A model generated the notes under the pieces. That model was not told the origin of the DNA. It did no database searches and was given only the letters and a program-made list of their open reading frames with translations. Positions 1 to 25,009 of a stretch of DNA of 64,000 nucleotides are shown one piece after another (positions within the stretch are counted from its first letter, which is position 1; the number at the start of each line of letters is the position of its first letter). This DNA is from Escherichia phage HP3. Where the stretch lies: the sequence record NC_041919.1. One strand, 5' to 3'. The position numbers and the translations under genes were made by a program.

Positions 1-473
1 CCGCCGCCGCCGCCACCGCCGCCTGCAATAGCTCCGCCATTATTAATTCTTAGTCTCCCACCAATATCGTTTTGAATACAATGACCTCCAGCTGAACCAG
101 GACTATTGCTACCGCCATTACCGCCACGTCCATACATCGTTACGCCGTGTATATTCAACTGAACATATTCATTCGGTGTATCTCCGTACATGAAGAATAA
201 AGGAACATCTTTAGAATATGATACTAAATCACCTGTAATATTAAACACTATAGGTGCACTACCTGCCTCAAAACATCTATCTCGGAACCATTGACCATTG
301 AAGTTATGGTCTGCTCCAAGCGTGTGAATAATTTCTCGTGAGCGACCTGCAAATTGACTCATCCAGCAAGGAACACCCAATCTTAATTGACCAGCCGCTT
401 GACTCATCCAGCGCTGTCCTGTTTCATTTGCGGCTGAACTTCCAATCCAACCAGGAACACCAACTACTGCCAT
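1..473 (-). CDS. 38: gp38 receptor-recognising adhesin, T2/T6 type (N-terminal ~157 codons; gene runs off the left edge)
   Basis: Minus-strand ATG at 471-473 with GGAG upstream; translation [28 protein letters not shown]... ending in a poly-Gly run encoded by the GGC/GGT repeats at 1-30, as in glycine-rich motifs of T2-type gp38; lies directly after gene 37. Not in the ORF track because it is truncated. Confidence 0.8.
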
Positions 474-488
474 AATTTATACTCCAAA

Positions 489-503
489 GGGGGCATTTCC
501 CCC
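489..503 (-). other. stem-loop between gene 37 stop and gene 38 start
   Basis: GGGGG-aaatg-CCCCC on the minus strand followed by TTTGGAG (gene 38 Shine-Dalgarno). Confidence 0.4.
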
Positions 504-509
504 TTGTTG

Positions 510-3497
510 TTAGAATTTAAAATATTTACTAATTTTGCGAGCAATTTTAGTAAAGAAAGGAGTTTTCAATTCTTTAATTTCTTCACTCATTTCCTGAATA
601 GCCTTAATTAAAAGAGCATTCACAGCAGAGTTAGAAATTGTCAGAACATCAGATCCATCAACTTCAACTTTAGATACAGCTTCCGGTAATTCCTTTTCAA
701 GGTCCTGAGCAATAATACCAACTTCACGTTTAATAACACTACGGTCTTTAATAGACTTAACTTTATCGTAAATATAAACTTTCAGTCGACATACTTTTTC
801 AAGTGCTCCGTTTTCTAGCTCTTTTTTATTAATCTTAAGACGACCATCGGAACGAATATACACATCGTTAAAGTTACCATTACCAGGAGAATAGAAAGTA
901 CCGTCGTAATGAAATTCAAATACCGCGTTAGGGTGTCCAGCCGCTGGCGATGCCTCCGCAGATCCAACACGAATAATTGCTTGCCCCCAATTGTTAGGGA
1001 CACGACGAATACCAAGATCGACGGCAGTTACAAACCCTTGATTGGTGATTACACTTCTTCCTTTGAGAATCGGATAATAACAATCCTGTGAAACATAACC
1101 ATGATCGACGAATATTGGTGCTTCTACTCGCCATTGGTTGCCCCAATCACCCGGTTGTCTAGCAATCCATCCAGAACCGTTAATGTGTACACGATCGCGG
1201 TTAACGTTAACCATTGCGATATTTTGTGGATTTAGCGAAATCTCACCATTGTTTGTGATATGTACTGCCGCCTGAGTAGCATAGCTATAAAATGCTAGCG
1301 AATTATCAGCACCACCCTTACCAATATACCAGTTACCACTCCCGTCTACGTCACCACGAATATGCAAAGCATTACCAGCAGTTGTTGATAATACAATAGA
1401 ATCACCCGGACGTTTAATAATCAATCTACCTTCGGATTCAATTTCACCAAAAAATTTAGTCTTAATTGCACCAGTCGCTAAAGTACGTTCAGTGGAAAAA
1501 TGAACGCCTTTGCTGTCTTCTAACTGAATAATGTTATCGCGCGCATTATTACTATCACCCCAATGATTAAACCGGAAATAATCACGTGATTGCTTACCAC
1601 CCGCTTCAAACGTCAGCGTACCTTTACTTAAATTAACATCACCGCTAAAGGTAGCAGCAAGAGAATCACGTTCTAATTTTAAAACGTTAGCACCACTAGT
1701 ACCACCTAAAGTAACATCACCAGTTCTCAATTCATAACGGAAAGGTCTATTTGTATTATAGTTTCCATTTTGATCATCTTCGTTGGTGGAAAGAATATAA
1801 AGATTCTCTCCATAAGTACGGAAAATTGTACCAAAATTTCCGGCATACATACGGAATGCATTAGATGAGCGAAATTTAACTTCTGTTTTAAAAGTGGTAG
1901 TGTTATTAAGGTTAACAGTAGAGTTAAAATTGGTAGGAGCACCGAAGTTAACTGCGCCATTAAAATCTTGTTGAGCTGTCCATGTGTGGCGACCATCTTC
2001 AAGAACAACACGGCGGACTGTGCAAGTTCTATTTCCAGAATTACCGAACACACGAACGACAAAATAACGGTAGTTTGTCTGGGATACAGTACCGCGCCAA
2101 ACCTGAACAGTACGCCCTGTGCTAGTGTGTTCGCTAGGACCAACGGAAAACATAACCAGGTTTCCGTCAATCGTCCCCCAATCCATATTTGCTGGCATAT
2201 TCTTTATTTTGTTCAAAGGAACACTAAACATACTACCAGGGACAAAATCAAAGGTTTGCCAATCTAGCTCCGCTAATTGAGTTTTAATACCACCCATACC
2301 CAAAGTAATTGGCAAAGAGTAAGATGTATATACTTCGTTCCATGTACCCCACGCGCCACCGGTATATGCACGCTCAAAAATACGATCGCGAGTAGTTGCA
2401 CCCGTTCCGGCAGTAGTAAATTTTTGGAAAATAGCACCACCAGAAGCACGCTGTTTAACTTCCAGCAAACCAACAATAACGGCTGGTAAACCTTCACCAG
2501 TAGGACAGTTAATAACGGCATCAGTGCCTAAAATGTTATATAACCCAGGAGTTTTAAAATCATTCAGATCTCCATCATAGAAAGTCGCTGGTGTGCCATG
2601 ACCAACCTGCTTCCATTCCTCCCACTTAGGTGCACTAGCATCCCATGCAGCAGCGAGACAACGAGTATAAACCATACCCATGCGGGTAGTATAACGCTGA
2701 GTTCTCGTGTATAAACCACCTTCAAATATTTCTAAAAATCCTTGTGCGGCTGATCCTTCTTCTGGATAATGGCGATCAAATGATGCGATTGCGCTTGAAC
2801 TGTTTCGCCATAAGCCACAATGTTCTAATTCTCCCAAGCTATCAAGGTCAATCGTTTGTGAAAGTGGACGAGTTGACGCTTGAACATTACGCCACACACC
2901 CCATGGACCATTGACGCCATTCCATTTAGCAGATAAGGAACGAATATAGACGTTACCAGATCTTACAGTATAACGCTGAGTGCCAGCAAATTGGCCGGCC
3001 ACAAACACTTCTAGTACACCTACGGCATTTTCTTCTGGGAATTTATTTGCTGGTTGCGCATTTGTTGAAGTAGATTTCGACCAAACACCAAGATATTCTT
3101 CAATGGGCCCATACGTATCTAAATTAGCATCAGTAGGTAATTCGCCATTATTTTTTATAAATGTTGTGCTATTGACATTTATGTCAGATGGAGTTAAGGT
3201 AATGTCCTTTGACCCATCAAAAGATATACCATTAATTTTCCTAGGTGTTTGCAATTTAGTAGCTGTGCTAGAATTTCCAATTAAAGTTCCAGTTATATTT
3301 TCTGTAACCTCTAAAGACCCATTTATAGTTCCTCCATATTTTAAACCTAATTCTATAACACTACCTGAGTCATCTTTTGTGAAAATTGTTTTATCTTTTA
3401 AGTTTATAGCCAATTCACCTTCGGCTAATACTGAAGCAGCAGGACGTTGACCTGCAGTTTTGCTTCTTTTAAATTGTATTTGTTTTAAAGTAGCCAT
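510..3497 (-). CDS. 37: gp37 long tail fibre distal subunit, with C-terminal intramolecular-chaperone (self-cleaving) domain
   Basis: 995 aa; N-terminus [13 protein letters not shown]...[15 protein letters not shown] matches T4 gp37; C-terminal ~112 aa carry an S-D-x-R-L-K motif ([22 protein letters not shown]) typical of peptidase S74 type chaperone domains; follows gene 36. Confidence 0.9.
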
Positions 3498-3505
3498 AAG
3501 TCCTC

Positions 3506-4156
3506 TTAATAATAGCCGAAATCTTGAACAGAATCCTTAATTACGATTTGGTCAAATCGTGGAACGTGTGAAGGTTGAGATGCAGGATTCTGTGAAAAAA
3601 GGTTTGGCGCAGTTAAATTTCCTGTCATAGTGTCTCCAGAGCGTAATACCCTAGAGTTTGCATTTGCTGTAACAGTATTTATTGCTCCATCAACATAATC
3701 TTTGCGAGTAACATCAGATGCTGCGGAAGGAGTAGATGTAACAGTTACCGATGGAGCCGTTACAGCCCTGGTAAATGTTGTCAAACCTTCTGGCGTAATA
3801 GTAATTTGTCCAGTAGTGATTTCACTACCTGCTGGTCTAAAACTAATACCGCCAGAAGAGCCACCAACTACAAGAGTATTACCAGTGCCGCCACCAGAAC
3901 GAATTCGGATGGGGGTTTCATTATTACTTAATTGAAGATAACTATTTACCCCGTAATTAATAGTAATTGGACCGGTGTAAGTACCACCATTAGCTTTAGA
4001 AACGAAATCGTTATCAGCTGCCTGCGGTTTATTATATTCTGAATATATTTTAAATGATTTGTAGAGTACATCGTCACCGGCTGAATTCAATGGAAAATTT
4101 CCTTGATGCCAAATGACAGATCCACCTACAGTTGAACCTACTTTTAAATCAGCCAT
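3506..4156 (-). CDS. 36: gp36 long tail fibre distal connector
   Basis: 216 aa; [24 protein letters not shown]... and C-terminus ...[18 protein letters not shown] match T4 gp36; synteny 35-36-37. Confidence 0.9.
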
Positions 4157-4179
4157 TATATGCCCCTTTATTTTAATAT

Positions 4180-4187
4180 TATTTATA
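4180..4187 (-). promoter_or_regulatory. late promoter for gene 36
   Basis: TATAAATA on the minus strand 24 nt upstream of the gene 36 ATG, right after the gene 35 terminator. Confidence 0.6.
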
Positions 4188-4190
4188 AAG

Positions 4191-4213
4191 AAAAAGGGAA
4201 CCCGAAGGCTCCC
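4191..4213 (-). terminator. rho-independent terminator after gene 35
   Basis: Minus strand GGGAGCC-ttcg-GGTTCCC followed by TTTTTCTTT. Confidence 0.7.
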
Positions 4214-4218
4214 TCAGT

Positions 4219-5334
4219 TTAAACTTCTCTAAATTCTTGCCCAAACACTTTGCCAGTTTTAGAAGAGGCTTGTGTAGGAAGTACCATTATATCTGGAGGT
4301 GAAGCCGATTCGCAGACATAATTAACGCGAATACCGTTGACGCCAAATTCGGCAGGTTTTGAAATGCCGCCATTTCTTGATACTTCAGAAAAGCTTAAAT
4401 TTCTCATGCCGCCTTGACCTGCTTGGGCAGTTCTTTGTGCATATATCGTAAATCCTACTGCATTTTCAGGAACAACTACATAATCTTCTTTTAATTCCCA
4501 AGACCCAGCTTGCCCAGTAAACTCAGCTTGGGTCGAGGAAATATATCCATTTGATGCATCATAAAAACGAATAGATATATTTGTAGTTCCAAGATCAAGT
4601 AAATCAGCATCAGCATATAGTTGTGCTTTAAGATAAAGAACATCACCAGGAATTAAATTGTAGTCAGAAAGTTTACTTATAGCAGCTGAAGTTGGCAATC
4701 GCGCAATTTCATTATTAGTTCCTCCAACCGCAGACATAAATTGCTCAACGCTTTCGTATGTTCTTTTAGGAAATCCTGTAGCTCCGACGTCTTCTAAACT
4801 ATCAAATACAACATCTAAAATAGTTTGATAATCATCTGTGCTTTTTCTATTACTTAGTTTAACATGCTCTAATGCAATAGCTCTTTTAGAAGAAGTATAA
4901 AAAGCAGCATATGATACGTCAAATCTTGACAATACTGAATCTGATGGAAAAACTGAAGTTCCTGCTCCCCTTAACCAAGATACCACTTCAGGAGGAAAAT
5001 TAACCTTTCCGCTAGTTAATATAGCAGCAAGTCTATTGTTTGACAAAGAATTCATGAAACTGACAAAAGCAGCTGATGTAGTATTATTTGAAGCAGAAAA
5101 AGCATATGACTTGCTATCAACTAATGCTCCCGTAGAAGGGTCAAAAACTCTTAAATGAAGACCTGCACTAAATGTTTGATTTCCAACGGGATTATCCTGA
5201 AATTTAACATATGGCCCCGCAGTAGAAAGCGGGCAAGAACCCGCTATGCTTATTTTATATCTTACTGAATTGCTTTCCGATAAAAATGGCGTTTGGACAT
5301 ATCCTTGTCCAAACTCTGCCATAAATTTTTCCAT
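4219..5334 (-). CDS. 35: gp35 long tail fibre hinge (knee) protein
   Basis: 371 aa; MEKFMAEFGQGYVQTPFLSESNSVRYKISIAGSCPL... matches T4 gp35 (372 aa). Confidence 0.9.
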   Translation of the reverse strand: MEKFMAEFGQGYVQTPFLSESNSVRYKISIAGSCPLSTAGPYVKFQDNPVGNQTFSAGLHLRVFDPSTGALVDSKSYAFSASNNTTSAAFVSFMNSLSNNRLAAILTSGKVNFPPEVVSWLRGAGTSVFPSDSVLSRFDVSYAAFYTSSKRAIALEHVKLSNRKSTDDYQTILDVVFDSLEDVGATGFPKRTYESVEQFMSAVGGTNNEIARLPTSAAISKLSDYNLIPGDVLYLKAQLYADADLLDLGTTNISIRFYDASNGYISSTQAEFTGQAGSWELKEDYVVVPENAVGFTIYAQRTAQAGQGGMRNLSFSEVSRNGGISKPAEFGVNGIRVNYVCESASPPDIMVLPTQASSKTGKVFGQEFREV

Positions 5335-5342
5335 AATACCTC

Positions 5343-8300
5343 TTATTCAACCCATTCAAATTTAACAGTTTTATTCACTGGGTCAGGAATAATGCGAACA
5401 TTACCAATTCGTAAGAAATCACGAATAGTAAGATTACCTATTATTCCATTATCAGATGGGATCGCTCCTATATCTGAAGGTTGAGGAGGGTTACCTCCGT
5501 CAAATACCTGAACAAAACTTGACCAAGAGTTTTTGGTTTTCTGCCATGTACGTGTCCAGCGAGTGGTACGTGCTTCTGGGGTCGTTGGATAAGTAATCCA
5601 ATCTTGGTAAAGCGAATCAAGTGTGTTACCAAACTGAGTCAATGTACCAGGAGATTTAACTTCTTCGCCACGTTCTAAGTATGGAAGCCCAGTCACTTCA
5701 TTAGTTTTTTCAACCATTTTAAAATAACCCGGGAACTGGTTATAAGTGGCTGAATCATTAATATCGATTGACCAGAATCCTACAGTATCAGATGTCGGCG
5801 CGCGGGTATATAAATCAGAGGTTTTAGTACCCTGAGAACGAATTCTCGAGTTAACAGTCAAACCACCCGAACTTATAGTAGCACCTTTTGCAATGATTAA
5901 GCTTTCACCAATCGTTACTTGGCCAGATGCATTATTAATAGCTAAAGGACGCAATCCATTAAATACGCCAGTTTGATCACCCGATGCAGTAAGCATAAAA
6001 TTCGTTACTGATCCATCATTGCGAACAATGAAACCATAATTTCCGTTAATAGCACGGAAAGCATTTGCGCTTCGAGAAATAATTTCACCAGTTGCAGTGA
6101 CTGAATTACCAAATGTTGCTACACCATTTGCATTCAATGTTCCTGAAGCATTAACATTTATCGGTGTTACTGTACCGTTGATATTAAATGTTATATTTCC
6201 AGCTTTATTACGCTGAGAATAAAAATGACTAGACGTTTCATCACTAACTTCAAATACGGTAGAACGTGTTGTGTCTGATTCCCCACTAAATTGATTTCCC
6301 CACACTCTGACTGTCATCGTTTGAGCCGGGTTTGTTCCAGTTTGAGGTCCTTTCTCAAAAATCAGACGAGTTGCCGTTCCAGTATTAGAAATAGTTAATG
6401 TACTATTTGCTGAAACTGATCCACCGAATGTAGCAGTACTAGATGATACAAGAGGGGCACTCAGATTCGTTTGTTGGGTTAAGGTTAGTGAACCATTAAC
6501 TGTTTGTGCAATGTCCCTACGAATGAACTGGAGCGAATCTAGACCATCTAATAAATTACTATCTACGGCTTTTGCTTTTAATGGCAAATAATTTGCTAAT
6601 ACGCGATTTAATTCATATGGTGATACTGCATAACCATTTTTCTCATATGATTCTAATGGCTGTGTTGAACCAGCTGTATCATTACCAACGAATGTAATTG
6701 AACCAGACGAAGTTTTAACAAAACCTCTTATCGCAGTAGTCGCTGCCCAAGTAGGTTCACTCTGCACAATCCATTTTAAATTTTTTGGAGATACAGCAGT
6801 ATTTGCTGACGTTCCAGCTACAGTTTCAGACCGAGTTGCAACTTTAATAACGCCTTCCTGTGCTTCAGTAGATTTAGTACCTAAAAGCTTTTTAGGAGTT
6901 ATTAAAACATTATCTAATGTTCCTGCAGCAGCTTCAACTTGTGTAGCTACACGAAGTGTACCACGCTGTGTCTCATTTGCTTCAAGAATATTAAGGGTAT
7001 AATGGTCCCAGAGAGTTCCTGATTCAACTAATCCAGATAGAGCAACAACAGAAGTACGATCAGTACTATTAAATCTGGTTTTAATTTTTAATGGTGTAGA
7101 GATACGAGTATCGTCGACGCCTGCGTCGAATTCAACCTGTGTAGCAATTTCAGCTATACCACTTAAACTTTCAGTTGCTCTACGGTCATTTAAAGTTTTA
7201 GGAGTGACTGCACGAGTATAATCAGTTCCTGTATTAACTTCACTTTGCGTAGCAATTTCAATTAAACCAATTCTTCCATCAGTTGATGTCTTTTTATGTA
7301 ACGTTTCTGGTGTTACAACCGCATTTGCCCATCCTTCTTGGCTTTGTCCAGCAATTACTTCACTTTCAACTGCTAAAATTACTGCGCCTTGTTGCGTTGG
7401 AGTAGCTTTATACTGATCCAAAGCTTTAGGTGAAACAACTAAATTATTAGTGTTTTTATTATAAACATTCGTACCATTTAATTCACGACTAGAAGCTGGA
7501 GTAGCTCCTGCAGTAGATACAAAAGTTACAATACCCGATAATGTTTCAGAACCTTGACGAGCTTGAAGCTTTTTAGGAGTGATGATTGTAGTATCATCGA
7601 TACCTGTATTAGTTTCCTGCTGCGTAGCAATTTCAGCAACACCTCTGCGAGTTTCTGTAGCAGTTCTTTCATTCAGCTTTTTAGGAGTGATGATAAGGTC
7701 ATCTGCAAAAGAGAATGTAGTGTTCTGATTTACTTGAGCAGTAGTTGCTATTCTTGCAATACCTCTGCGAGTTTCAGTAGCAGTACGATTAGCTAACGTT
7801 TCTGGAGTAATTGCTAATTCTTTTTGTGGAGAATTTTCTAAATCAGCATTTGCTTGAGCTTGCGTAGCTAAAGCAATTACGCCTAATCTTGCTCTAGTAG
7901 AAGCATTTAAAGAGTCTACTCTTTCTACAGTTGGAACGTTTTGCTGTACAACCCAGTATTTTCCATCAGAATCTTCTATATAAGCAAGTTGCAAAACTGG
8001 TACATAATTAGTTTCACCATTAAAAACTAATTCTTGAACTGTTACCCATTCAGCTTCAGGCGGATATTCTGAACGTTTTGGGAATTGCAGCAATTGAACT
8101 GAAGAAGCAATTTTATCTTCACCAGCAGCTTTGATTTTAACTGTTTGTCCTTTTCTCATGTAATTCATGGAAATTTTAACAGTATCACCAACAGAAATAT
8201 CAGTCGGAAGCTGAAGTTCAATTGTTTGGGTTGTTCCATTATTCGCGCCAAATACCATGACTTCTTCATTTGGACGAATATTTGAATTAGTTGTTATAAT

Positions 8301-9212
8301 GCGTAAACGTGCTTTACTATCCCCGTCAAACAATCTCCACAATTTCTCATTATCGTCAAACATCAAGAAACCGTCAATCGATGTACGGCCTTCAATGGAA
8401 TGAGTTCCAACTTCTTGTACTGAAGTCGTTTCATCGTATGTAGTAACAATTGTATGATAAAGTGGATTCAGTTTATCTAAATCAACGAAATTAATAATAT
8501 CGCCATGATTAGCAAATCTCGGAAGTTTAACATTAATTGGTGCAGCAGAAGTAAATCTACGTACGATAAAATCATTAGATTGTGCTTGATACGCAGTCGA
8601 TGGAGTAACAATCGCAGCTTCTCTGCTATAATCAGCAACATACATTTGCCACAAACGATTATTAAAAATGAATATCATCTGTGACTTTGGATGAGTCATT
8701 AAAACTGAACGTACCTGTTCACCTCTAAAATTGACAATACTCTGATTTGAAGAATTTATTTTAACCTGATTTATGCCAGGTTTTCCACCGATATCTTGAA
8801 TTATTACGGTTTCTCCATCAAGCGGAGAAGGTGGTAAAGTAAACTCAATGTCATTGCCAACTGATGTATCTACTGAAATTGCTTCTCCGGATTTTAATTG
8901 ATATGGTCCAGATGATACGGTTGTATATACGGCATCAGTACGTAATGCTTTCCAACGAATTCTATTAAAATTTCCAGCAGGTTTTGGAATATTATCCGTT
9001 GCTGCCCAAAAACGATTATTATAAATGATTACAAAATCTTTTAAATATCCACGAGTTGGGTCATATTGCTGAACTGTGTTTTCTTGAATTAAGTAATCAA
9101 CGTTAACACCGTCAGTTCCTACGGTACGATCAGCTAAAGCTACGTTGATTATTTTATCGCCACCTGCGTCCAGACCATCTTCTGCTCTGAACTTTCTTTT
9201 AATCTCGGCCAT
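5343..9212 (-). CDS. 34: gp34 long tail fibre proximal subunit
   Basis: 1289 aa, same length as T4 gp34; MAEIKRKFRAEDGLDAGGDKIINVALADRT...; repeated ...TPKKL...TETRRG... segments; divergent from rnh as in T4. Confidence 0.95.
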   Translation of the reverse strand: MAEIKRKFRAEDGLDAGGDKIINVALADRTVGTDGVNVDYLIQENTVQQYDPTRGYLKDFVIIYNNRFWAATDNIPKPAGNFNRIRWKALRTDAVYTTVSSGPYQLKSGEAISVDTSVGNDIEFTLPPSPLDGETVIIQDIGGKPGINQVKINSSNQSIVNFRGEQVRSVLMTHPKSQMIFIFNNRLWQMYVADYSREAAIVTPSTAYQAQSNDFIVRRFTSAAPINVKLPRFANHGDIINFVDLDKLNPLYHTIVTTYDETTSVQEVGTHSIEGRTSIDGFLMFDDNEKLWRLFDGDSKARLRIITTNSNIRPNEEVMVFGANNGTTQTIELQLPTDISVGDTVKISMNYMRKGQTVKIKAAGEDKIASSVQLLQFPKRSEYPPEAEWVTVQELVFNGETNYVPVLQLAYIEDSDGKYWVVQQNVPTVERVDSLNASTRARLGVIALATQAQANADLENSPQKELAITPETLANRTATETRRGIARIATTAQVNQNTTFSFADDLIITPKKLNERTATETRRGVAEIATQQETNTGIDDTTIITPKKLQARQGSETLSGIVTFVSTAGATPASSRELNGTNVYNKNTNNLVVSPKALDQYKATPTQQGAVILAVESEVIAGQSQEGWANAVVTPETLHKKTSTDGRIGLIEIATQSEVNTGTDYTRAVTPKTLNDRRATESLSGIAEIATQVEFDAGVDDTRISTPLKIKTRFNSTDRTSVVALSGLVESGTLWDHYTLNILEANETQRGTLRVATQVEAAAGTLDNVLITPKKLLGTKSTEAQEGVIKVATRSETVAGTSANTAVSPKNLKWIVQSEPTWAATTAIRGFVKTSSGSITFVGNDTAGSTQPLESYEKNGYAVSPYELNRVLANYLPLKAKAVDSNLLDGLDSLQFIRRDIAQTVNGSLTLTQQTNLSAPLVSSSTATFGGSVSANSTLTISNTGTATRLIFEKGPQTGTNPAQTMTVRVWGNQFSGESDTTRSTVFEVSDETSSHFYSQRNKAGNITFNINGTVTPINVNASGTLNANGVATFGNSVTATGEIISRSANAFRAINGNYGFIVRNDGSVTNFMLTASGDQTGVFNGLRPLAINNASGQVTIGESLIIAKGATISSGGLTVNSRIRSQGTKTSDLYTRAPTSDTVGFWSIDINDSATYNQFPGYFKMVEKTNEVTGLPYLERGEEVKSPGTLTQFGNTLDSLYQDWITYPTTPEARTTRWTRTWQKTKNSWSSFVQVFDGGNPPQPSDIGAIPSDNGIIGNLTIRDFLRIGNVRIIPDPVNKTVKFEWVE

Positions 9213-9246
9213 TCTCCCGGGCTCCTATTGTGTTTTCAATAATAAG

Positions 9247-9254
9247 TATTTATA
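9247..9254 (-). promoter_or_regulatory. late promoter for gene 34
   Basis: TATAAATA on the minus strand 35 nt upstream of the gene 34 ATG. Confidence 0.6.
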
Positions 9255-9257
9255 CCT

Positions 9258-9287
9258 GTTTACTTTAAGATTTAGATAGTATATAAT
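9258..9287 (+). promoter_or_regulatory. T4-type early promoter for rnh, back-to-back with the gene 34 late promoter
   Basis: GTTTAC 9258-9263, 18 nt spacer, TATAAT 9282-9287. Confidence 0.45.
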
Positions 9288-9316
9288 AGAAATCTCACTA
9301 ATTGAACGAGGTTCAT

Positions 9317-10234
9317 ATGGATTTAGAAATGATGCTGGATGAAGATTACAAAGAAGGAATTTGCTTTATTGACTTTAGTCAAATTGCTCTTTCAACTGCT
9401 CTGGTAAACTTCCCAGATAAAGAAAAAATTAATTTATCAATGGTTCGTCATTTGATATTGAACTCAATTAAGTTTAATGTCAAAAAAGCAAAAACGCTTG
9501 GATACACTAAAATTGTACTGTGTATTGATAACGCGAAATCTGGATACTGGCGTCGTGATTTCGCTTATTATTATAAGAAAAACCGTGGAAAAGCACGAGA
9601 AGAATCTACTTGGGACTGGGAAGGTTATTTTGAATCCAGTCATAAAGTTATAGATGAATTGAAAGCTTATATGCCATACATTGTTATGGATATTGATAAG
9701 TATGAAGCAGATGACCACATTGCTGTTCTTGTTAAAAAGTTCTCTTTAGAAGGACATAAGATTTTAATCATTTCATCGGACGGTGACTTTACTCAACTTC
9801 ACAAATATCCAAATGTTAAGCAATGGTCACCGATGCACAAGAAATGGGTTAAAATTAAAAGCGGTTCTGCTGAAATTGATTGTATGACTAAAATTCTTAA
9901 GGGTGACAAAAAGGATAACGTTGCTTCAGTTAAAGTACGATCTGACTTTTGGTTTACCAGAGTTGAAGGTGAACGAACTCCTTCAATGAAAACTTCAATC
10001 GTTGAAGCTATTGCTAATGACCGTGAGCAAGCTAAGGTGCTTCTCACAGAATCTGAATATAATCGTTATAAAGAAAATTTAGTTCTAATTGATTTTGATT
10101 ATATTCCTGATAATATTGCTTCAAACATTGTGAATTACTATAATTCATATAAATTACCACCGCGTGGCAAAATTTATTCATATTTTGTAAAAGCGGGTCT
10201 TTCTAAATTAACTAATAGCATTAATGAATTTTGA
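9317..10234 (+). CDS. rnh: RNase H (5'-3' exonuclease, flap endonuclease)
   Basis: 305 aa from ATG 9317 (GAGG 9308-9311 upstream; ORF track begins at TTG 9302); MDLEMMLDEDYKEGIC...SINEF matches T4 RNase H. Confidence 0.95.
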   Translation: MDLEMMLDEDYKEGICFIDFSQIALSTALVNFPDKEKINLSMVRHLILNSIKFNVKKAKTLGYTKIVLCIDNAKSGYWRRDFAYYYKKNRGKAREESTWDWEGYFESSHKVIDELKAYMPYIVMDIDKYEADDHIAVLVKKFSLEGHKILIISSDGDFTQLHKYPNVKQWSPMHKKWVKIKSGSAEIDCMTKILKGDKKDNVASVKVRSDFWFTRVEGERTPSMKTSIVEAIANDREQAKVLLTESEYNRYKENLVLIDFDYIPDNIASNIVNYYNSYKLPPRGKIYSYFVKAGLSKLTNSINEF

Positions 10235-14267: not shown

Positions 14268-15094
<827 letters not shown>

Positions 15095-15114
15095 AATAAC
15101 ACGTGGCGGAAAAT

Positions 15115-15462
15115 ATGAATTTTAATTATTACCCTATTCTATTAGAAGAAGACGCGAAACAGCCAAAGTGGCAGGGTCCTCAGTTTATTAAAGGTGTCTA
15201 TCAATTAGTAGTTCCTAAAGACAAGATTTATAGCAGTTGTTTCACTGAATCCGCTTGCAGTATTTTCGGTAATAGTTCTCCGTATTGGAATTTTGACATA
15301 AAGCTGGATAGAAATATCGATATTTGGTTGAAAGCTATGGATATTGGTAATATCACGTTTGATGAGAATAATTATCATATTATTGGTCGCTTTTCCAAAC
15401 GCGGTAAAGAATTATATTTCACGCCTGAAATTGAGAGAAAATTTGATGCTAAACCGTATTGA
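15115..15462 (+). CDS. hypothetical protein inserted between frd and td
   Basis: 115 aa from ATG 15115 (ORF track starts at GTG 15103); no motif recognised; sits where T4 frd and td abut. Confidence 0.5.
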   Translation: MNFNYYPILLEEDAKQPKWQGPQFIKGVYQLVVPKDKIYSSCFTESACSIFGNSSPYWNFDIKLDRNIDIWLKAMDIGNITFDENNYHIIGRFSKRGKELYFTPEIERKFDAKPY

Positions 15463-15507
15463 TTATTTAGCTTCATAAAATGTATTATAATTTATATAAG
15501 GTACTAA

Positions 15508-16056
15508 ATGAAACAATACCAAGATTTAATTAAAGACATTTTTGAAAATGGCTATGAAACTGATGACCGAACGGGCACAGGAACAATTGCTTTGTTCGGT
15601 ACTAAATTACGCTGGGATTTAACTAAAGGTTTTCCTGCAGTAACAACTAAGAAGCTCGCCTGGAAAGCTTGCATTGCTGAGCTACTTTGGTTTTTATCAG
15701 GAAGCACAAATGTCAATGATTTACGATTAATTCAGCATGATTCGTTAATCCAAGGCAAAACAGTTTGGGATGAAAATTACGAAAATCAGGCAAAAGATTT
15801 AGGATACCATAGTGGTGAACTTGGCCCAATTTATGGAAAACAGTGGCGCGATTTTGGCGGTGTAGACCAAATTATAGAAGTTATTGATCGTATTAAAAAA
15901 CTACCAAGTGATAGGCGTCAAATTGTTTCTGCGTGGAATCCAGCTGAACTTAAATATATGGCATTACCACCTTGTCATATGTTCTATCAGTTTAATGTGC
16001 GTAATGGTTATCTTGATTTACAATGGTATCAACGCAGTGTAGATGTTTTCTTGGGT
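15508..16056 (+). CDS. td: thymidylate synthase, exon 1
   Basis: 183 codons MKQYQDLIKDIFENGYETDDRTGTGT...QRSVDVFLG; reading frame broken by an in-frame TAA at the 5' splice site after ...TTGGGT. Confidence 0.9.
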
Positions 16057-16376
16057 TAATTGAGGCCTAGGTATAAGGTGACTTATACTTGTAATCTATC
16101 TAAACGGGGGACCTCTCTAGTAGACAATCCCGTGCTAAATTGTAGGACTACCCTTTAATAATTTCATCAGGATTAGTTACTTACCGTGTAAAATCTGATA
16201 AATGGAATTGGTTCTACATAAATGCCTAACGACTATCCCTTTGGGGAGTAGGGTCAAGTGACTCGAAACGATAGACAACTTGCTTTAACAAGTTGAAGAT
16301 ATAGTCTGATCTGCATGGTGACATGCAGCTGGATATAATTCCGGGGTAAGATTAACGACCTTATCTGAACATAATG
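16057..16376 (+). ncRNA. group I self-splicing intron in td, lacking a homing endonuclease ORF
   Basis: Starts TAATTGAGGCC..., ends ...CTGAACATAATG with terminal G; conserved td-intron core segments (GGTGACTTATACTTGTAATCTATCTAAACGGGG, CCCTTTGGGGAGTAGGGTCAAGTGACTCGAAACGATAGACAACTTGC, CATGGTGACATGCAGCTGGATATAATTCCGGGGTAAGATTAACGACC); 320 nt, no ORF >= 60 aa in any frame. Confidence 0.85.
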
Positions 16377-16688
16377 CTTCCATTTAATATTGCATCATAT
16401 GCTACGTTAGTTCATATTGTAGCTAAGATGTGTAATCTTATTCCGGGAGATTTGATATTTTCCGGTGGTAATACTCATATCTATATGAATCACGTAGAAC
16501 AATGTAAAGAAATTTTGCGTCGTGAACCTAAAGAGCTTTGTGAACTGGTAATAGGCGGATTGCCTTATAAATTCCGCTATCTTTCTACTAAAGAACAATT
16601 GGAATACATTCTTAAACTCAGGCCTAAAGATTTCGTTCTCAAAGATTATCAGTCCCACGGCGTCTTGAAAGGAAAAATGGCGGTGTAA
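16377..16688 (+). CDS. td: thymidylate synthase, exon 2
   Basis: LPFNIASYATLVHIVAKMCNLIPGDLIFSGGNTHIYMNHVEQ... continues the TS fold; exons 1+2 give 286 aa, as in T4 TS. Confidence 0.9.
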   Translation, partial: LPFNIASYATLVHIVAKMCNLIPGDLIFSGGNTHIYMNHVEQCKEILRREPKELCELVIGGLPYKFRYLSTKEQLEYILKLRPKDFVLKDYQSHGVLKGKMAV

Positions 16689-16711
16689 TTTCAATTTAAT
16701 TGCGAGGATAT

Positions 16712-16975
16712 ATGATTTTACGATTTAAAGATACTTCTGGTGCAGTTCTTTTTACACTTCCTAATCCAAGTGAGCTAGAAGTTCCAGGACCAAATCAGCC
16801 TATTATCATTTATGGCAAAAAATATTATACTCATAAAATGACTCGTGAGTATTTTGATAATAAAATTTCTACAGTTAAAACTTCTTCTGATTGTTACTAT
16901 GATATTACTGTTTTAACGGAAAAACAATATGACGAATTATCACCGCGCGGGCCGTCTATGTCGGGTAGTGAATAA
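16712..16975 (+). CDS. hypothetical protein
   Basis: 87 aa from ATG 16712 with GAGGA Shine-Dalgarno (ORF track starts at TTG 16700). Confidence 0.5.
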
Positions 16976-17255
16976 ATATAAATCCGACTTTGATGTCAAT
17001 ATTCACCGCGGTACATTTTGGGGAAATTACGTCGGTAAAGATGCTGGCAGCCGGGAGGCTGCCATTGAATTATTCAAAAAAGATTTTATACGTCGAATTA
17101 AATCCGGAGAAATAACTAAAGCACATTTAGAGCCTTTACGTGGAATGAGGCTAGGATGCACATGTAAACCAAAGCCGTGTCATGGTGATATAATAGCTCA
17201 TATAGTTAACCGATTGTTTAAAGACGATTTTCAAGTTGAGGACTTATGCAATTAA
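16929..17255 (+). CDS. hypothetical protein with Cys/His cluster (nrdA.1 position)
   Basis: 108 aa; ...[12 protein letters not shown]...; start uncertain because it overlaps the preceding ORF by 47 nt; stop overlaps nrdA start. Confidence 0.45.
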
Positions 17256-19510
17256 TTAATGTTATCAAAAGTAGTGGTGTTTCTCAGAGCTTTGACCCGC
17301 AAAAAATTATTAAAGTTTTATCTTGGGCAGCTGAGGGAACATCAGTAGATCCTTATGAATTATATGAAAATATTAAATCATATCTCCGTGATGGAATGAC
17401 AACTGATGACATTCAGACTATTGTCATTAAGGCTGCTGCGAATTCTATTTCGGTTGAAGAACCTGATTATCAATATGTAGCTGCACGTTGTTTAATGTTT
17501 GCTCTTCGTAAGCATGTTTATGGGCAGTATGAACCACGTTCATTTATTGACCATATTTCTTACTGTGTAAATGAAGGTAAATATGACCCCGAATTATTGT
17601 CAAAATATTCAGCAGAAGAAATTACATTTTTAGAATCAAAAATTAAGCACGAACGGGATATGGAATTTACTTATTCCGGGGCGATGCAATTAAAAGAAAA
17701 ATATCTAGTTAAAGATAAAACCACTGGTCAAATTTATGAAACTCCACAGTTTGCATTTATGACTATTGGAATGGCATTGCATCAAGATGAACCTGTTGAT
17801 AGATTAAAACATGTTATTCGTTTTTATGAAGCAGTATCTACTCGACAGATTTCATTACCAACTCCTATTATGGCTGGTTGCCGTACTCCGACTCGACAGT
17901 TCAGTTCATGCGTTGTTATTGAGGCAGGAGATTCATTGAAGTCTATCAATAAGGCTTCCGCTTCGATTGTTGAATATATCTCTAAACGCGCTGGAATTGG
18001 TATTAACGTTGGTATGATTCGTGCTGAAGGTTCTAAGATTGGCATGGGTGAAGTACGCCATACTGGTGTTATTCCTTTTTGGAAACATTTTCAGACTGCT
18101 GTTAAATCATGTTCACAGGGTGGAATTCGTGGCGGCGCTGCTACTGCTTATTATCCTATTTGGCATTTGGAAGTTGAAAATCTTCTCGTTTTGAAAAATA
18201 ACAAAGGCGTAGAAGAAAACCGCATTCGTCATATGGATTATGGTGTTCAACTGAATGATTTGATGATGGAACGATTCGGAAAGAACGATTACATTACTTT
18301 GTTCAGTCCGCATGAAATGGGTGGAGAGCTTTATTATTCTTATTTTAAAGACAAAGACCGTTTCCGTGAATTATACGAAGCAGCAGAAAAAGACCCTAAT
18401 ATTCGTAAAAAGCGTATTAAAGCCCGTGAACTATTTGAATTGCTCATGACTGAACGTTCAGGAACAGCAAGGATTTATGTACAGTTCATTGATAATACGA
18501 ATAACTATACTCCGTTTATTCGTGAAAAGGCACCTATTCGTCAGAGTAACTTGTGCTGTGAAATTGCTATTCCAACAAATGATGTGAATAGTCCTGATGC
18601 TGAAATTGGATTGTGTACTCTCTCTGCATTCGTACTAGATAATTTTGACTGGCAAGACCAAGATAAAATTAATGAATTGGCAGAAGTTCAAGTTCGTGCT
18701 CTTGATAATCTGTTGGATTACCAAGGATATCCAGTTCCTGAAGCAGAAAAAGCTAAAAAGCGTCGAAATCTTGGCGTAGGTGTTACCAACTATGCAGCTT
18801 GGCTGGCAAGTAACTTTGCTTCTTATGAAGATGCTAACGATTTAACGCATGAACTATTTGAGAGATTACAGTATGGACTCATTAAAGCATCCATTAAGCT
18901 CGCCAAAGAAAAAGGACCTTGCGAATATTATTCAGACACTCGTTGGTCTCGAGGCGAATTACCTATCGACTGGTACAATAAAAAGATTGACCAAATCGCA
19001 GCTCCAAAATACGTTTGTGACTGGTCGTCGCTGCGGGAAGACCTTAAGCTCTTTGGCATCCGTAATAGCACATTATCAGCACTTATGCCATGTGAGTCAT
19101 CTTCCCAAGTTTCTAACAGTACAAACGGTATCGAGCCTCCACGTGGACCAGTCTCTGTTAAAGAATCAAAAGAGGGCTCCTTTAATCAAGTCGTGCCCAA
19201 TATTGAGCATAACATAGACCTTTACGACTATACATGGAAATTAGCTAAGAAAGGTAATAAACCTTATCTTACGCAGGTAGCTATTATGCTGAAATGGGTA
19301 TGTCAATCAGCTTCAGCGAATACATATTATGACCCGCAGATTTTTCCAAAAGGAAAGGTTCCAATGTCAATAATGATTGATGACATGCTATACGGGTGGT
19401 ATTATGGCATTAAAAATTTCTATTATCATAATACCCGTGATGGTTCTGGTACTGATGATTATGAAATAGAAACTCCAAAAGCTGAAGATTGTTCATCCTG
19501 TAAATTATGA
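17246..19510 (+). CDS. nrdA: aerobic ribonucleotide reductase large subunit
   Basis: 754 aa, same length as T4 NrdA; recognisable class I RNR alpha sequence. Confidence 0.95.
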   Translation: MQLINVIKSSGVSQSFDPQKIIKVLSWAAEGTSVDPYELYENIKSYLRDGMTTDDIQTIVIKAAANSISVEEPDYQYVAARCLMFALRKHVYGQYEPRSFIDHISYCVNEGKYDPELLSKYSAEEITFLESKIKHERDMEFTYSGAMQLKEKYLVKDKTTGQIYETPQFAFMTIGMALHQDEPVDRLKHVIRFYEAVSTRQISLPTPIMAGCRTPTRQFSSCVVIEAGDSLKSINKASASIVEYISKRAGIGINVGMIRAEGSKIGMGEVRHTGVIPFWKHFQTAVKSCSQGGIRGGAATAYYPIWHLEVENLLVLKNNKGVEENRIRHMDYGVQLNDLMMERFGKNDYITLFSPHEMGGELYYSYFKDKDRFRELYEAAEKDPNIRKKRIKARELFELLMTERSGTARIYVQFIDNTNNYTPFIREKAPIRQSNLCCEIAIPTNDVNSPDAEIGLCTLSAFVLDNFDWQDQDKINELAEVQVRALDNLLDYQGYPVPEAEKAKKRRNLGVGVTNYAAWLASNFASYEDANDLTHELFERLQYGLIKASIKLAKEKGPCEYYSDTRWSRGELPIDWYNKKIDQIAAPKYVCDWSSLREDLKLFGIRNSTLSALMPCESSSQVSNSTNGIEPPRGPVSVKESKEGSFNQVVPNIEHNIDLYDYTWKLAKKGNKPYLTQVAIMLKWVCQSASANTYYDPQIFPKGKVPMSIMIDDMLYGWYYGIKNFYYHNTRDGSGTDDYEIETPKAEDCSSCKL

Positions 19511-19561
19511 TATAATTTGACTCACGGACGAGTCACCAACTATTAACTAAGTGGAAAATTT

Positions 19562-20740
19562 ATGAGCACAGTTTTTAATACAAACCCAGTTGATGTTTTA
19601 AAAGAACCTATGTTTTTTGGTTCAGGTCTTGGTATTGCGCGTTATGATATTCAACGGCATCGAGTATTTGAAGAACTTACAGAGAAGTCCTTATCATTTT
19701 TCTGGCGCCCGGAAGAAGTAAACTTAATGATGGATGCTGCACAGTTTAATAAGCTTCCTCAGTATCAGCAAAATATTTTTACTAACAACTTGAAGTATCA
19801 ATCACTTTTGGATAGCATTCAGGGTCGTGCGCCGTCTGCTGTACTTATGTCATTAATTTCAGACCCAAGCCTTGATACGTGGATTGCTACATGGACTTTT
19901 AGTGAAACTATTCACAGTCGTTCATATACACATATCATGCGAAATCTTTATACTGATCCATCGAAGGTATTTGATGAGATTGTATTAGATGAAGCTATTA
20001 TGAAACGTGCTGAATCCATTGGACGTTATTATGATGATGTTCTGATTAAAACTCGTGAATGGGAAAATGCTAAAGAATTTGTAGAACTATCTAAAGAATC
20101 TCCTGATGCCGACTTTCGTTTAAACCGAGCTATTAAACAAGAAGCCGAAGCTAAACGTGCTTTAATGAAATCTCTTTACCTCTGTTTGCACGTTATTAAT
20201 GCATTAGAAGCTATTCGTTTTTATGTATCCTTTGCGTGTACCTTTAACTTCCATAAGAACATGGAAATCATGGAAGGTAATGCCAAGATTATGAAGTTCA
20301 TTGCGCGTGATGAGCAGCTTCATCTTAAAGGCACCCAATATATTATTCGTCAACTTCAACTTGGCACTGATGGCGATGAATGGGTTAAAATTGCTCAAGA
20401 GTGTGAACAAGAAGCAGTTGATATTTTCATGGAAGTTAACCGCCAAGAAAAAGATTGGGCAGTTCATTTATTTAAAGATGGAGATGTTCCTGGATTAAAT
20501 ACAAATAGCATGTGGAGCTTTATTGATTACTTAACTGTATCTCGTATGAAGCAGTGTGGTCTTCCATGCCCAATTACCGATGCTCCGGTTAAACATCCAT
20601 ATCCTTGGATTCGTGAATATCTTAATTCTGATAATGTTCAATCTGCACCACAAGAAGTAGAATTGTCATCTTACCTTGTTGCACAGATTGATAATGATGT
20701 TGATGATAAAGTTATGATGAGTTTTAAAAAATACTTTTAA
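19562..20740 (+). CDS. nrdB: aerobic ribonucleotide reductase small subunit (uninterrupted)
   Basis: 392 aa continuous ORF with recognisable R2 sequence; no intron. Confidence 0.95.
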   Translation: MSTVFNTNPVDVLKEPMFFGSGLGIARYDIQRHRVFEELTEKSLSFFWRPEEVNLMMDAAQFNKLPQYQQNIFTNNLKYQSLLDSIQGRAPSAVLMSLISDPSLDTWIATWTFSETIHSRSYTHIMRNLYTDPSKVFDEIVLDEAIMKRAESIGRYYDDVLIKTREWENAKEFVELSKESPDADFRLNRAIKQEAEAKRALMKSLYLCLHVINALEAIRFYVSFACTFNFHKNMEIMEGNAKIMKFIARDEQLHLKGTQYIIRQLQLGTDGDEWVKIAQECEQEAVDIFMEVNRQEKDWAVHLFKDGDVPGLNTNSMWSFIDYLTVSRMKQCGLPCPITDAPVKHPYPWIREYLNSDNVQSAPQEVELSSYLVAQIDNDVDDKVMMSFKKYF

Positions 20741-20745
20741 GGAGT

Positions 20746-20764
20746 GGGCCGCAAGGCCCATTTT
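20746..20764 (+). terminator. rho-independent terminator after nrdB
   Basis: GGGCC-gcaa-GGCCC hairpin then ATTTT. Confidence 0.6.
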
Positions 20765-20767
20765 ATT

Positions 20768-22355
<1,588 letters not shown>

Positions 22356-22358
22356 GCT

Positions 22359-22388
22359 GTTTACAAGTCCCTCGTGTTGTGTTATAGT
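22359..22388 (+). promoter_or_regulatory. T4-type early promoter (copy A of a repeated promoter/leader cassette)
   Basis: GTTTAC 22359-22364, 18 nt spacer, TGTTATAGT -10; leader continues to GAGGA and ATG. Confidence 0.55.
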
Positions 22389-22416
22389 AGTCTTACTGAC
22401 ATAACATGAGGACTTT

Positions 22417-22923
22417 ATGATGGATTTGCAGCTTATTACTACTGAAATGGTCGTTAAAGCATACGGTGATACTACAGATGGGATTTCTGTATTTAAAGGA
22501 AATCGTCGAGTTGGATATATCACCGATCTTAAGAAAGATTTAGCTAAGCAAGTCAAGCGGAAAACGACCATTAAAGAATATCGAAATCGTCGTCTTGAGC
22601 AAGCCCGTGATATGCTTCCTGATGCGGTTGAGGAGATGAAAGTCTTTTTAGAAAATCAGCTTGCGAAATATGATTGCGATGTGTTCATTAATCAGACTCA
22701 ACCTAATGTTCATATTAACAACTGTAAATGCTATATCATCGTTAATCCTTTAACGGGAAAACATCGTCTTGGAATTAGTAATCCAAATCGTAGCGCATCG
22801 GATATGGCAGAAGATGTTGAGGCATGCTTTAAAATTTCTAAATCTCCGGCTGAACATCATATTTTAATTAACGGTCTTTCTCAAGACGATATTATAGAGG
22901 TTATTAAAACTTTATGCAATTAA
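22417..22923 (+). CDS. alc: probable Alc (host transcription shut-off on cytosine DNA)
   Basis: 167-168 aa, matching the length of T4 Alc, at the expected place between 63 and the pseT region; sequence not independently recalled. Confidence 0.5.
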   Translation: MMDLQLITTEMVVKAYGDTTDGISVFKGNRRVGYITDLKKDLAKQVKRKTTIKEYRNRRLEQARDMLPDAVEEMKVFLENQLAKYDCDVFINQTQPNVHINNCKCYIIVNPLTGKHRLGISNPNRSASDMAEDVEACFKISKSPAEHHILINGLSQDDIIEVIKTLCN

Positions 22924-23267
22924 GTAATACGACAGCAGGTTTGCTATTAATTGTAATTGCATTAGGCGGAACTTCTTTAATTTTAAAAAATAAAATTGAA
23001 AGATTAGAAACGTCTGTTGTAGAAATTACAAAAACGGCCAATGAAAACGCCTTAGCATTAAATAATTTGCGAATTCAGTATAATTATATTGATGCGATGA
23101 ATAATAAAAATCGTGAGGCGATTGCTGCTATTGAGCGTGAAAATGAAAAACTGCGCAAAGATGCAAAGAAGGCGGATGTGGTGGCTCGTAAGCCAGGATT
23201 GGTTGAAAAACAAATCAACAACTCCTTCAACAAGTTCGCAGAAGACATCCAGGACCTTTCTAAATGA
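22914..23267 (+). CDS. i-spanin-like inner membrane protein (pseT.3 position)
   Basis: 117 aa; N-terminal hydrophobic helix GLLLIVIALGGTSLIL followed by a charged, coiled-coil-like segment; overlaps next ORF by ATGA. Confidence 0.6.
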   Translation: MQLSNTTAGLLLIVIALGGTSLILKNKIERLETSVVEITKTANENALALNNLRIQYNYIDAMNNKNREAIAAIERENEKLRKDAKKADVVARKPGLVEKQINNSFNKFAEDIQDLSK

Positions 23268-23563
23268 TTAGACTATCAGCAGTAATATTATCTATCGGTC
23301 TTCTAGCTGGTTGTTCGACAAAGCCTCTAGAAGTAAAGAAAGAAACAGTTCATCCTAATTGGCCTGTACAAATAAAGTCATATGACGAAGCTAAATTATC
23401 TTGGCAAGTTAAAGTTATTGATGGCAAAGCTTGGGTCGGTATGCCATTTGAAGATTCTCAGGAATTTCGTATTTGGCTTAATGATGTAAAACGATATGTA
23501 CATGACCAGAAAACTATGATATGTTATTATCGTCAAGAGTTAAAAGAGGATAAATGTAAATGA
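23264..23563 (+). CDS. o-spanin-like outer membrane lipoprotein (pseT.2 position)
   Basis: 99 aa; signal with lipobox LLAGC (Cys17); immediately after the i-spanin-like gene. Confidence 0.6.
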   Translation: MIRLSAVILSIGLLAGCSTKPLEVKKETVHPNWPVQIKSYDEAKLSWQVKVIDGKAWVGMPFEDSQEFRIWLNDVKRYVHDQKTMICYYRQELKEDKCK

Positions 23564-23786
23564 TTTCATGGCATCAATTTGAACATCTCAAAGGATTGAT
23601 TTATGAATCCGAGATGGCTGCAATGATTTATGGACGCCAGATTCAGCGATTAGAATCTTTACCTCCAACTAATGATGTTTTATTAGCTCAATCACGTGCT
23701 AATCTTAAAAATGAATACCAAAATAAGTGGGGCAAAGCATCTAAAGACCTGCATGATTATATTCAATCATTAGTTGAGAAAAATAA

Positions 23787-23790: not shown

Positions 23791-25008
<1,218 letters not shown>

Positions 25009-25009
<1 letters not shown>

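Follow-up and report, generated by a model that had tools for sequence, protein, structure and literature searches.

Genes 37 and 38 of Escherichia phages HP3 and HP3.1, very probably a T6-type distal long-tail-fibre cassette

Gene order and features of the locus

The window analysed is a stretch of 64,000 nucleotides from Escherichia phage HP3 (NC_041919.1), in which the distal long-tail-fibre genes occupy the first positions, on the minus strand. Window positions 1-9497 are 100% identical in DNA to phage HP3.1 (OK275722.1), with no sequence difference. In that record the two genes are HP31_0084, which is gene 37 (100% DNA identity), and HP31_0085, labelled only 'Phage tail fiber' and 'tail fibers protein'. 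Gene 37 (510..3497, minus strand) is an ORF of 995 codons encoding the distal long-tail-fibre subunit precursor, of 109.5 kDa. The 5' part of gene 38, identified by its Pfam matches (1..473, minus strand), encodes residues 1-157 of the gp38 adhesin (260 residues, 26.4 kDa) and ends at the window edge; these residues are the same as the first 157 of the full HP3.1 protein (9025-9807 of the compared HP3.1 DNA).

The surrounding gene order is that of T4, as the first-pass annotation had stated. With DNA identities of 87-98%, the window follows T4 (NC_000866) collinearly from gene 18 up to a point about 155 nt inside gene 37, and the module shares with T4 its map position and the genes that flank it (34, 35, 36 ... 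t, asiA). The final blastn match to T4 covers window positions 3343-3735; DNA homology stops at about nt 3343, inside the gp37 N-terminus, and resumes at the end of gene 38, as seen in HP3.1. Upstream of gene 36, TATAAATA (4180..4187, minus strand) agrees at every position with the consensus of T4 late promoters. We infer that genes 36, 37 and 38 are probably transcribed together from this promoter in a single late mRNA.

Genes 37 and 38 are separated by a spacer of 36 nt (474..509, minus strand), which contains a hairpin and a ribosome-binding site. The ATG of gene 38 lies at nt 473-471 on the minus strand, with GGAG 8 nt ahead. The hairpin is G+C-rich (GGGGG-AAATG-CCCCC), and it was rejected as a structured element, its fold of -14.9 kcal/mol not being significant against shuffles (z = -1.3). 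The spacer of phage T6 likewise contains a hairpin, but with another loop. The record of Yersinia phage fPS-65 annotates a terminator at the spacer position, on the opposite strand, and a 'predicted late promoter' at the place equivalent to that upstream of gene 36.

Domain structure of gp37 and gp38

The product of gene 37 is matched end to end by PHROG 1699, 'long tail fiber protein distal subunit' (E = 2e-229), and every function-labelled PHROG match belongs to a tail-fibre or tail family. Its conserved N-terminus (residues 1-64; 3306..3497, minus strand), delimited by protein identity, is common to T4 and T2: residues 1-64 are 75% identical to T4 gp37 and residues 1-71 are 73% identical to T2 gp37. 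It is followed by tandem knob-like repeats (2313..3128, minus strand), R1 at about residues 124-205 and R2 at about 216-298, with a weak third copy, R3, at about 300-395. Self-blastp gave nothing useful on internal repeats, whereas segment alignment against shuffles did reveal them: the local alignment of R1 with R2 scored 155, with a shuffle mean of 25 (z = 30), and that of R1 with R3 gave z = 3.5. Three 'pyocin knob' domains have been described in HP3/HP3.1 gp37 (PMC9127763). Further downstream, residues 522-587 (1737..1934, minus strand) resemble the C-terminal trimerisation domain of gp34 (Pfam Gp34_trimer, E = 2.5e-10), and the T4 gp34 PDB chains 4uxe, 5nxf and 9x3r match residues 441-599, with E from 3.5e-7 to 3e-6.

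The last 113 residues of gp37 (883-995, 12.9 kDa; 513..851, minus strand) constitute an intramolecular chaperone domain, placed at the extreme C-terminus as the Peptidase S74 class requires. Pfam Peptidase_S74 (PF13884) matches residues 883-941 over model positions 1-57 of 58, with E = 6.2e-11 and 42.9 bits against a curated cut-off of 22 bits, and its first position falls exactly on Ser883. The domain also matches residues 86-191 of gp37 of Salmonella phage S16 (E = 9e-5). The motif SDGRLK (residues 883-888; 834..851, minus strand) occurs once in gp37 and aligns with SDRRIK of S16 gp37 (6f45_A) and SDERLK of 8jov_1. The pattern S-D-x-R-x-K is kept in gp37 of T6, fPS-65, T2 and S16, with the Ser-to-Lys spacing as expected; we take it to be a Ser-Lys dyad, as in endosialidase work. 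On this motif, Ser883 is the predicted nucleophile and first residue of the released fragment, and Lys888 the predicted general base. An SD-x-RLK self-cleaving domain of about 112 residues, alignable with S74 peptidases and cut near nt 848, had been proposed earlier, and the analysis bears out the domain and its motif with slight corrections, the domain having 113 residues and the Ser883 codon lying at nt 849-851.

Immediately before the motif stands NDVYIR (852..872, minus strand), the predicted C-terminus of mature gp37, which would end at Arg882. It aligns with ...RDLNVS of S16 gp37, immediately N-terminal of the cleavage site there. The same cleavage, DVYIR^SDGRLK, has been published as a prediction for the fPS phages, whose sequence is identical at this point, and it carries over unchanged from fPS-65 (PMC7917993). 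Cut between Arg882 and Ser883, the 109.5 kDa precursor would leave a product of about 96.6 kDa. By analogy with S16, the exposed NDVYIR end is predicted to be the docking surface of gp38. Self-cleavage of gp37 has been described for the homologues in S16 (PMC7917993) and in T2 and T6 (PMC3157838).

Gene 38 lies directly downstream of a gene 37 with a chaperone domain, as is demanded of an adhesin-type gp38. The N-terminal attachment domain (residues 1-42; 348..473, minus strand) is matched by Pfam Gp38_N (E = 3.2e-20) and has three tryptophans, W9, W22 and W37, in the repeated motifs PGW, QRW and PCW. Pfam GP38 matches residues 47-157, within the window part of the protein (E = 1e-46). The first long poly-Gly tract begins at residues 151-157 (3..23, minus strand) and is a run of 9 Gly in the full protein. 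Full HP3.1 gp38 has 34% Gly over residues 110-260, a content that fits the polyglycine sandwich domain known from S16 (PMC7917993). It ends in ...PTWQNVGAIYGPRV, in agreement with the conserved adhesin-family ending WQNVGxIYGxRV. The full protein matches gp38 of PP01 (PDB 9v85, E = 2e-79) and of S16 (PDB 6f45_D, E = 2.5e-49), while blastp against T4 gp38 found no match at E <= 1e-3. With both Pfam gp38 domains matched, gp38 is classed as the adhesin type, running into poly-Gly as had been claimed from the first reading. The S74 and gp38 profile matches are strong and above curated thresholds, not chance resemblance. Gene anatomy, family memberships, catalytic-motif conservation and identity to HP3.1 were all observed directly.

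Comparison with known phages

The module closely resembles that of T6 (AP018814): over 12.2 kb the two tail-fibre regions are collinear, with 94.3% DNA identity. Full-length identity to the T6 protein is 89.8% for gp37, and gp38 is 92.7% identical; the proteins differ little in size (gp37 of 995 residues here and 994 in T6, gp38 of 260 and 261), and the architecture is alike. The differences in gp37 are found chiefly at residues 550-900. In gp38 there are 18 substituted positions and a one-residue indel, and those in the C-terminal domain include S165/R166, D187, A199, N206 and Y231. The receptor of T6 is Tsx, whereas mapping of HP3 pointed to LPS and OmpA. The fPS-65 module is 95.1% identical in DNA, with gp37 94% and gp38 98% identical. 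Five gp38 residues differ (R166Q, G194A, Y231S, D234N and T246A), and the receptor reported for fPS-65 in Yersinia is the inner-core heptose of LPS.

Phage T2 (AP018813) belongs to the same functional class, with an adhesin gp38 on a processed gp37, and shares the gp37 N-terminus, the gp38 attachment domain and, together with T6, the cleavage motif VYIRSDxRLK. However, T2 gp37 has 1341 residues and is unrelated over most of its length, with strong matches only to residues 1-71 and 859-982 of the protein here and two weak internal ones at 23-36% identity. The gp38 identity to T2 is 52% and is restricted to the N-terminal 147 residues; the released gp37 fragment of T2 has 99 residues, and T2 binds FadL. 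The module had first been called T2-type. That is right for the functional class, but a strict T2-type cassette was ruled out by the pairwise gp37, gp38 and DNA comparisons, which make it T6-type.

Salmonella phage S16 (PDB 6F45) is alike in mechanism. The last 113 residues of its gp37 form a chaperone that cuts itself off, leaving a tip on which gp38 docks (PMC7917993), a course of events that would apply here by homology. The S16 gp38 is a monomer that has Trp prongs as well as a polyglycine sandwich domain. The S16 gp37 shaft ahead of the cleavage site is unrelated to that of HP3, the site is S^S rather than R^S, and S16 binds OmpC. T4 is different: as previously noted for this locus, its gp37 has a receptor-binding tip of its own, without similarity to the S74 region here, and its gp38 is an unrelated protein, annotated as a chaperone and absent from the virion.

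An adhesin module within a T4-like gene order, as the first-pass annotation described it, is nothing out of the ordinary. Among phage records, adhesin-type gp38 numbers 815 against 297 of the T4 type; most T4 relatives have the adhesin form (record counts; PMC3157838), so that the T4 type is the exception. The arrangement is ordinary, well described and common to most T4 relatives, and there is nothing new in it. The S74 domain of HP3/HP3.1 gp37 has already been reported (PMC9127763), and the fibre-tip mechanism has been worked out by genetics in T2 and T6 and by structure in S16 (PDB 6F45).

Fibre assembly, receptors and host range

We consider it very probable that genes 37 and 38 of the Tequatrovirus phage HP3.1 form a distal long-tail-fibre cassette of T6 type and act as follows, with cleavage, capping and receptor choice resting on close homologues and published work. 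Genes 36, 37 and 38 would be expressed late. By homology, gp37 would trimerise with the aid of its own C-terminal chaperone domain of 113 residues, which, once the fibre has folded, would cut itself off between Arg882 and Ser883 by means of Ser883 and Lys888. Cleavage would expose a flat trimeric tip ending in ...DVYIR, and a single gp38 would dock there by its N-terminal domain, with W9, W22 and W37 as Trp prongs. As in the relatives, the Gly-rich C-terminal domain of gp38 may then offer its variable loops to a host outer-membrane receptor. In relatives gp38 sits in the virion at the fibre tip and sets the receptor (PMC3157838, PMC12032242, PMC7917993).

Other readings of the two proteins were considered. 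For this very gp37 it has been proposed that the protein is itself an enzyme, because it has a 'chaperone of endosialidase' domain, and the HP3/HP3.1 distal tail fibre was listed as a putative depolymerase from its S74 and knob domains (PMC9127763). An endosialidase or polysaccharide depolymerase degrading capsule or biofilm matrix is extremely unlikely here. The S74 match in gp37 is real, but this domain is a folding and self-cleavage module only, predicted to be released from the mature protein. The endosialidase reading was rejected because gp37 is without a catalytic domain: the Pfam scan (E <= 0.01) gave only S74, Gp34_trimer and a weak gp37_trimer, with no sialidase or glycosidase domain, and the function-labelled PHROG matches are all tail families. 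Moreover, HP3 and HP3.1 form no halos (PMC9127763). A second possibility, that the S74-like domain is a degenerate remnant and gp37 stays uncleaved or is cut by another protease, draws on the fact that cleavage in HP3.1 is a prediction; in addition, a single-sequence AlphaFold2 model of residues 860-995 is mostly helical, but of low confidence (pLDDT 43.7). Against it, neither Ser883 nor Lys888 has been lost, and T6, fPS-65, T2 and S16 all keep the motif. The domain is nearly invariant among HP3.1, T6 and fPS-65 (0-1 differences in the last two 50-column alignment blocks) while the shaft just upstream varies, and homologues of gp37 are processed (PMC3157838, PMC7917993), which makes a remnant very unlikely.

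It is likewise highly improbable that gp38 is no more than an assembly chaperone of the T4 kind, with gp37 itself binding the receptor. The T4 gene at this map position is annotated as a chaperone, and T2-type gp38 also chaperones before it stays attached to the fibre (PMC7917993). Nevertheless, the gp38 encoded here is without sequence similarity to the T4 protein and falls fully in the adhesin family by its attachment domain, Gly-rich motifs and variable segments, and exchange of such segments between the gp38 of T6 and PST alters host range (PMC3157838).

Resistance mapping of HP3/HP3.1 led to LPS and ompA, and these screens reported no tsx mutants (PMC8092219). gp38 is about 97-98% identical to that of RB5, RB14 and KarlGJung, its closest relatives, which are Tsx users (PMC3157838, PMC13353012). 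Residue R166 is common to phage PST, which uses Tsx, OmpA and LPS (PMC3157838), and Y231 is unique among the seven sequences compared. From the published genetics and these relatives, the phage most likely has a Tsx-like receptor set that is widened to include OmpA and LPS. Of the receptors suggested at the outset, Tsx thus agrees with the closest gp38 relatives, while nothing points to OmpF or FadL. The expectation that gp38 sets host range fits its adhesin class, but not as sole determinant, since the two range-extending mutations of HP3.1, one reported in the short tail fibre and the other at residue 9 (Gln9Arg) of a long-tail-fibre gene (PMC8092219), are outside the gp38 variable loops. 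In the deposited record of the evolved phage HP3.2 an 11-bp deletion frameshifts gene 38, and a start further downstream is annotated there; should the deletion be genuine, an altered gp38 may be tolerated by this phage.

Coming from the deposited sequence of a therapeutic-candidate phage, the result carries little weight as a discovery, and its value lies in annotation and phage therapy. In place of its vague labels, the HP3.1 record could carry 'long tail fibre distal subunit with self-cleaving chaperone' and 'gp38 adhesin', and the published endosialidase interpretation of gp37 should be given up. From its sequence, gp38 is predicted to use T6/PST-like receptors (Tsx, OmpA and LPS), a point of relevance to the way in which bacteria will become resistant to HP3-family phages. 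As a tentative and rather doubtful proposal, R166, which lies in variable segment 2, and Y231, in the last such segment, might shift or widen Tsx recognition towards OmpA and LPS on ST131 E. coli. If true, the Tsx-to-OmpA switch proposed by others would have a natural intermediate in this phage.

Genes 37 and 38 and the type of cassette

The distal long-tail-fibre subunit gp37 is encoded on the minus strand by an ORF of 995 aa (window 510..3497), with ORFs of 216, 371 and 1289 aa upstream. Gene 38, which encodes the adhesin, starts at nt 473 on the same strand and continues past the window edge, where the ORF is interrupted within a Gly run. The motif SDGRLK occurs once in the 995-aa protein (aa 883-888; Ser883 codon at nt 849-851), and Pfam places Peptidase_S74 ('chaperone of endosialidase') on aa 883-941, beginning at model position 1 (42.9 bits, cut-off 22). 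Pfam also detected Gp38_N on gp38 aa 1-42 (E = 3e-20) and GP38 on aa 47-157 of the window portion (E = 1e-46). All elements of the first-pass annotation, a gp37 ending in a self-cleaving chaperone followed by an adhesin-type gp38, were thus recovered at their positions with support well above chance. The observation stands, its main points were described correctly, and it is not new.

Escherichia phage HP3.1 (OK275722.1, Tequatrovirus) shares 100% identity with window 1-3497, and base-for-base identity reaches across window 1-9497. That record, in which genes 37 and 38 are labeled merely 'Phage tail fiber' and 'tail fibers protein', gives a complete gp38 of 260 aa. Megablast with the module matched 627 phage records, 135 of them covering at least 80% of it.

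An adhesin-type cassette in a T4-like backbone was confirmed, because collinearity with T4 spans the entire window from gene 18 up to the beginning of gene 37 (87-98% identity). However, protein and DNA comparisons show that the cassette is T6-type and not T2-type, as had been proposed. Identity to T6 is 89.8% over the full length of gp37 and 92.7% for gp38, and identity to Yersinia phage fPS-65 is 94% and 98%, respectively. In contrast, T2 gp37 (1341 aa) matches at aa 1-71 (73%), aa 859-982 (46%) and weakly at internal positions, and the match to T2 gp38 (52%) is limited to the N-terminal 147 aa. T4 gp37 matches at aa 1-64 (75%) and in one short weak internal segment, and no match between T4 gp38 and HP3.1 gp38 was found by protein comparison. 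T6 DNA is collinear with 12.2 kb around the module (94.3% identity), whereas homology to T4 and T2 DNA is lost ~155 nt into gene 37 and regained at the end of gene 38. The adhesin-type arrangement is not unusual: 815 phage records carry an adhesin-type gp38 versus 297 with the T4 type, in agreement with Trojet et al., for whom the T2/T6 form is predominant (PMC3157838).

Several other features were found in the window. The gene 37/38 spacer contains a G+C-rich hairpin, GGGGG-AAATG-CCCCC (window 474-509, minus), with a folding energy indistinguishable from that of shuffled sequence (z = -1.3). T6 has a hairpin in the same spacer with a different loop. In the fPS-65 record the element at this position is annotated as a terminator on the opposite strand. 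The T4 late-promoter consensus TATAAATA is present in 19 copies versus 8.9 expected, mainly on the minus strand before structural genes, with exact copies upstream of gene 36 (4180-4187, minus) and gene 34 (9247-9254, minus). The hinge connector gp35 (4219-5334, minus) matches Pfam ILEI, 'Interleukin-like EMT inducer', at aa 58-112, barely above the cut-off (28 bits against 27). Within window ~14290-26262, collinearity gaps coincide with T4 introns and homing-endonuclease genes (td/I-TevI, nrdB/I-TevIII, mobE and segG regions), and these mobile elements seem to be absent or different in this phage.

Anatomy of gp37 and probable capping of the fibre tip

The conserved N-terminus of gp37 (aa 1-64) is followed by a repeat region in its N-terminal half (aa 124-395; window 2313-3128, minus). 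Two tandem repeats of ~85 aa are clear (~aa 124-205 and 216-298; alignment z = 30) and a third copy is weak (~aa 300-395; z = 3.5). The three correspond to the 'pyocin knob' domains described for HP3/HP3.1 gp37 (PMC9127763). A gp34 C-terminal-like segment spans aa 441-599 (Pfam and PDB matches), and the shaft at aa 550-900 holds most differences from T6 and fPS-65. The mature protein is predicted to end at ...NDVYIR882, before a chaperone domain of 113 aa (aa 883-995) that is nearly invariant among HP3.1, T6 and fPS-65; a single-sequence structure model of this domain was not usable.

The S74 domain of this exact gp37 had already been noted and taken to indicate endosialidase activity (PMC9127763). 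This reading is unsupported, because a Pfam scan found no glycosidase domain in gp37.

VYIRSDxRLK is kept in T6 (Ser882), fPS-65 (Ser882) and T2 (Ser1243), and aligns to DLNVS-SDRRIK of gp37 from Salmonella phage S16 (PDB 6F45 chain A). In S16, gp37 trimerises and then cleaves off its own last 113 residues, and gp38 binds the tip so exposed via conserved Trp residues; for the fPS phages, the same cleavage behind DVYIR is an explicit published prediction (PMC7917993). HP3.1 gp38 has W9, W22 and W37 within the repeated motifs PGW, QRW and PCW, its C-terminal domain is 34% Gly, and the protein matches the gp38 structures of PP01 (9v85, identified through PMC12892980; E = 2e-79) and of S16 (E = 2.5e-49). 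By homology, HP3.1 gp37 probably cleaves itself and is then capped by gp38. The gp37 precursor has a predicted mass of 109.5 kDa, which cleavage would divide into mature gp37 (96.6 kDa) and a released fragment (12.9 kDa); gp38 is predicted at 26.4 kDa. The cleavage site, docking model and adhesin role are already published for near-identical relatives.

Gene 38 differs in the sister evolved phage HP3.2 (OP978391.1), which lacks 11 bp (CACGCTTGGAG) at ~4673-4684 of the HP3.2 sequence compared, equivalent to window ~nt 314-324 and codons ~50-53, directly after the attachment domain. The deletion shifts the frame, and gp38 is annotated from a downstream start. Either this is an error of sequencing, or HP3.2 has an adhesin that is split or truncated.

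Receptor use and host range

KarlGJung and fPS-65 have the same gp38, which differs from that of HP3.1 at five positions; those of RB14, RB5, T6 and PST are likewise close. Tsx is the receptor of T6-like adhesins in E. coli (PMC3157838), and KarlGJung uses it in this host (PMC13353012). PST gp38 differs from that of T6 by 167R, 168I and 208I, and PST additionally uses OmpA and, less so, LPS (PMC3157838). In HP3.1 (gene at 9025-9807 of the HP3.1 sequence compared, aa 166 and 231 beyond the window), R166 is the counterpart of PST 167R and is shared by PST only among seven T6-like gp38 compared, while Y231 was found in no other of the seven. In ST131, resistance to HP3 and HP3.1 was located in LPS core genes and ompA (PMC8092219), and R166 and Y231 are candidates for the residues behind the reported dependence of HP3 on OmpA/LPS.

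Two changes are reported to separate HP3.1 from HP3, one affecting the short tail fibre and the other residue 9 of a long-tail-fibre gene; neither lies in gp38 (PMC8092219). Codon 9 of gp34 (window 9186-9188, minus) encodes Arg, as in T4, T2, T6 and PST.

The first-pass annotation had suggested receptor mapping on OmpF, FadL or Tsx mutants. OmpF and FadL are without support. Close Tsx-using relatives, an R166 as in PST and this location of resistance therefore make a T6/PST-like receptor set the best inference for HP3.1.
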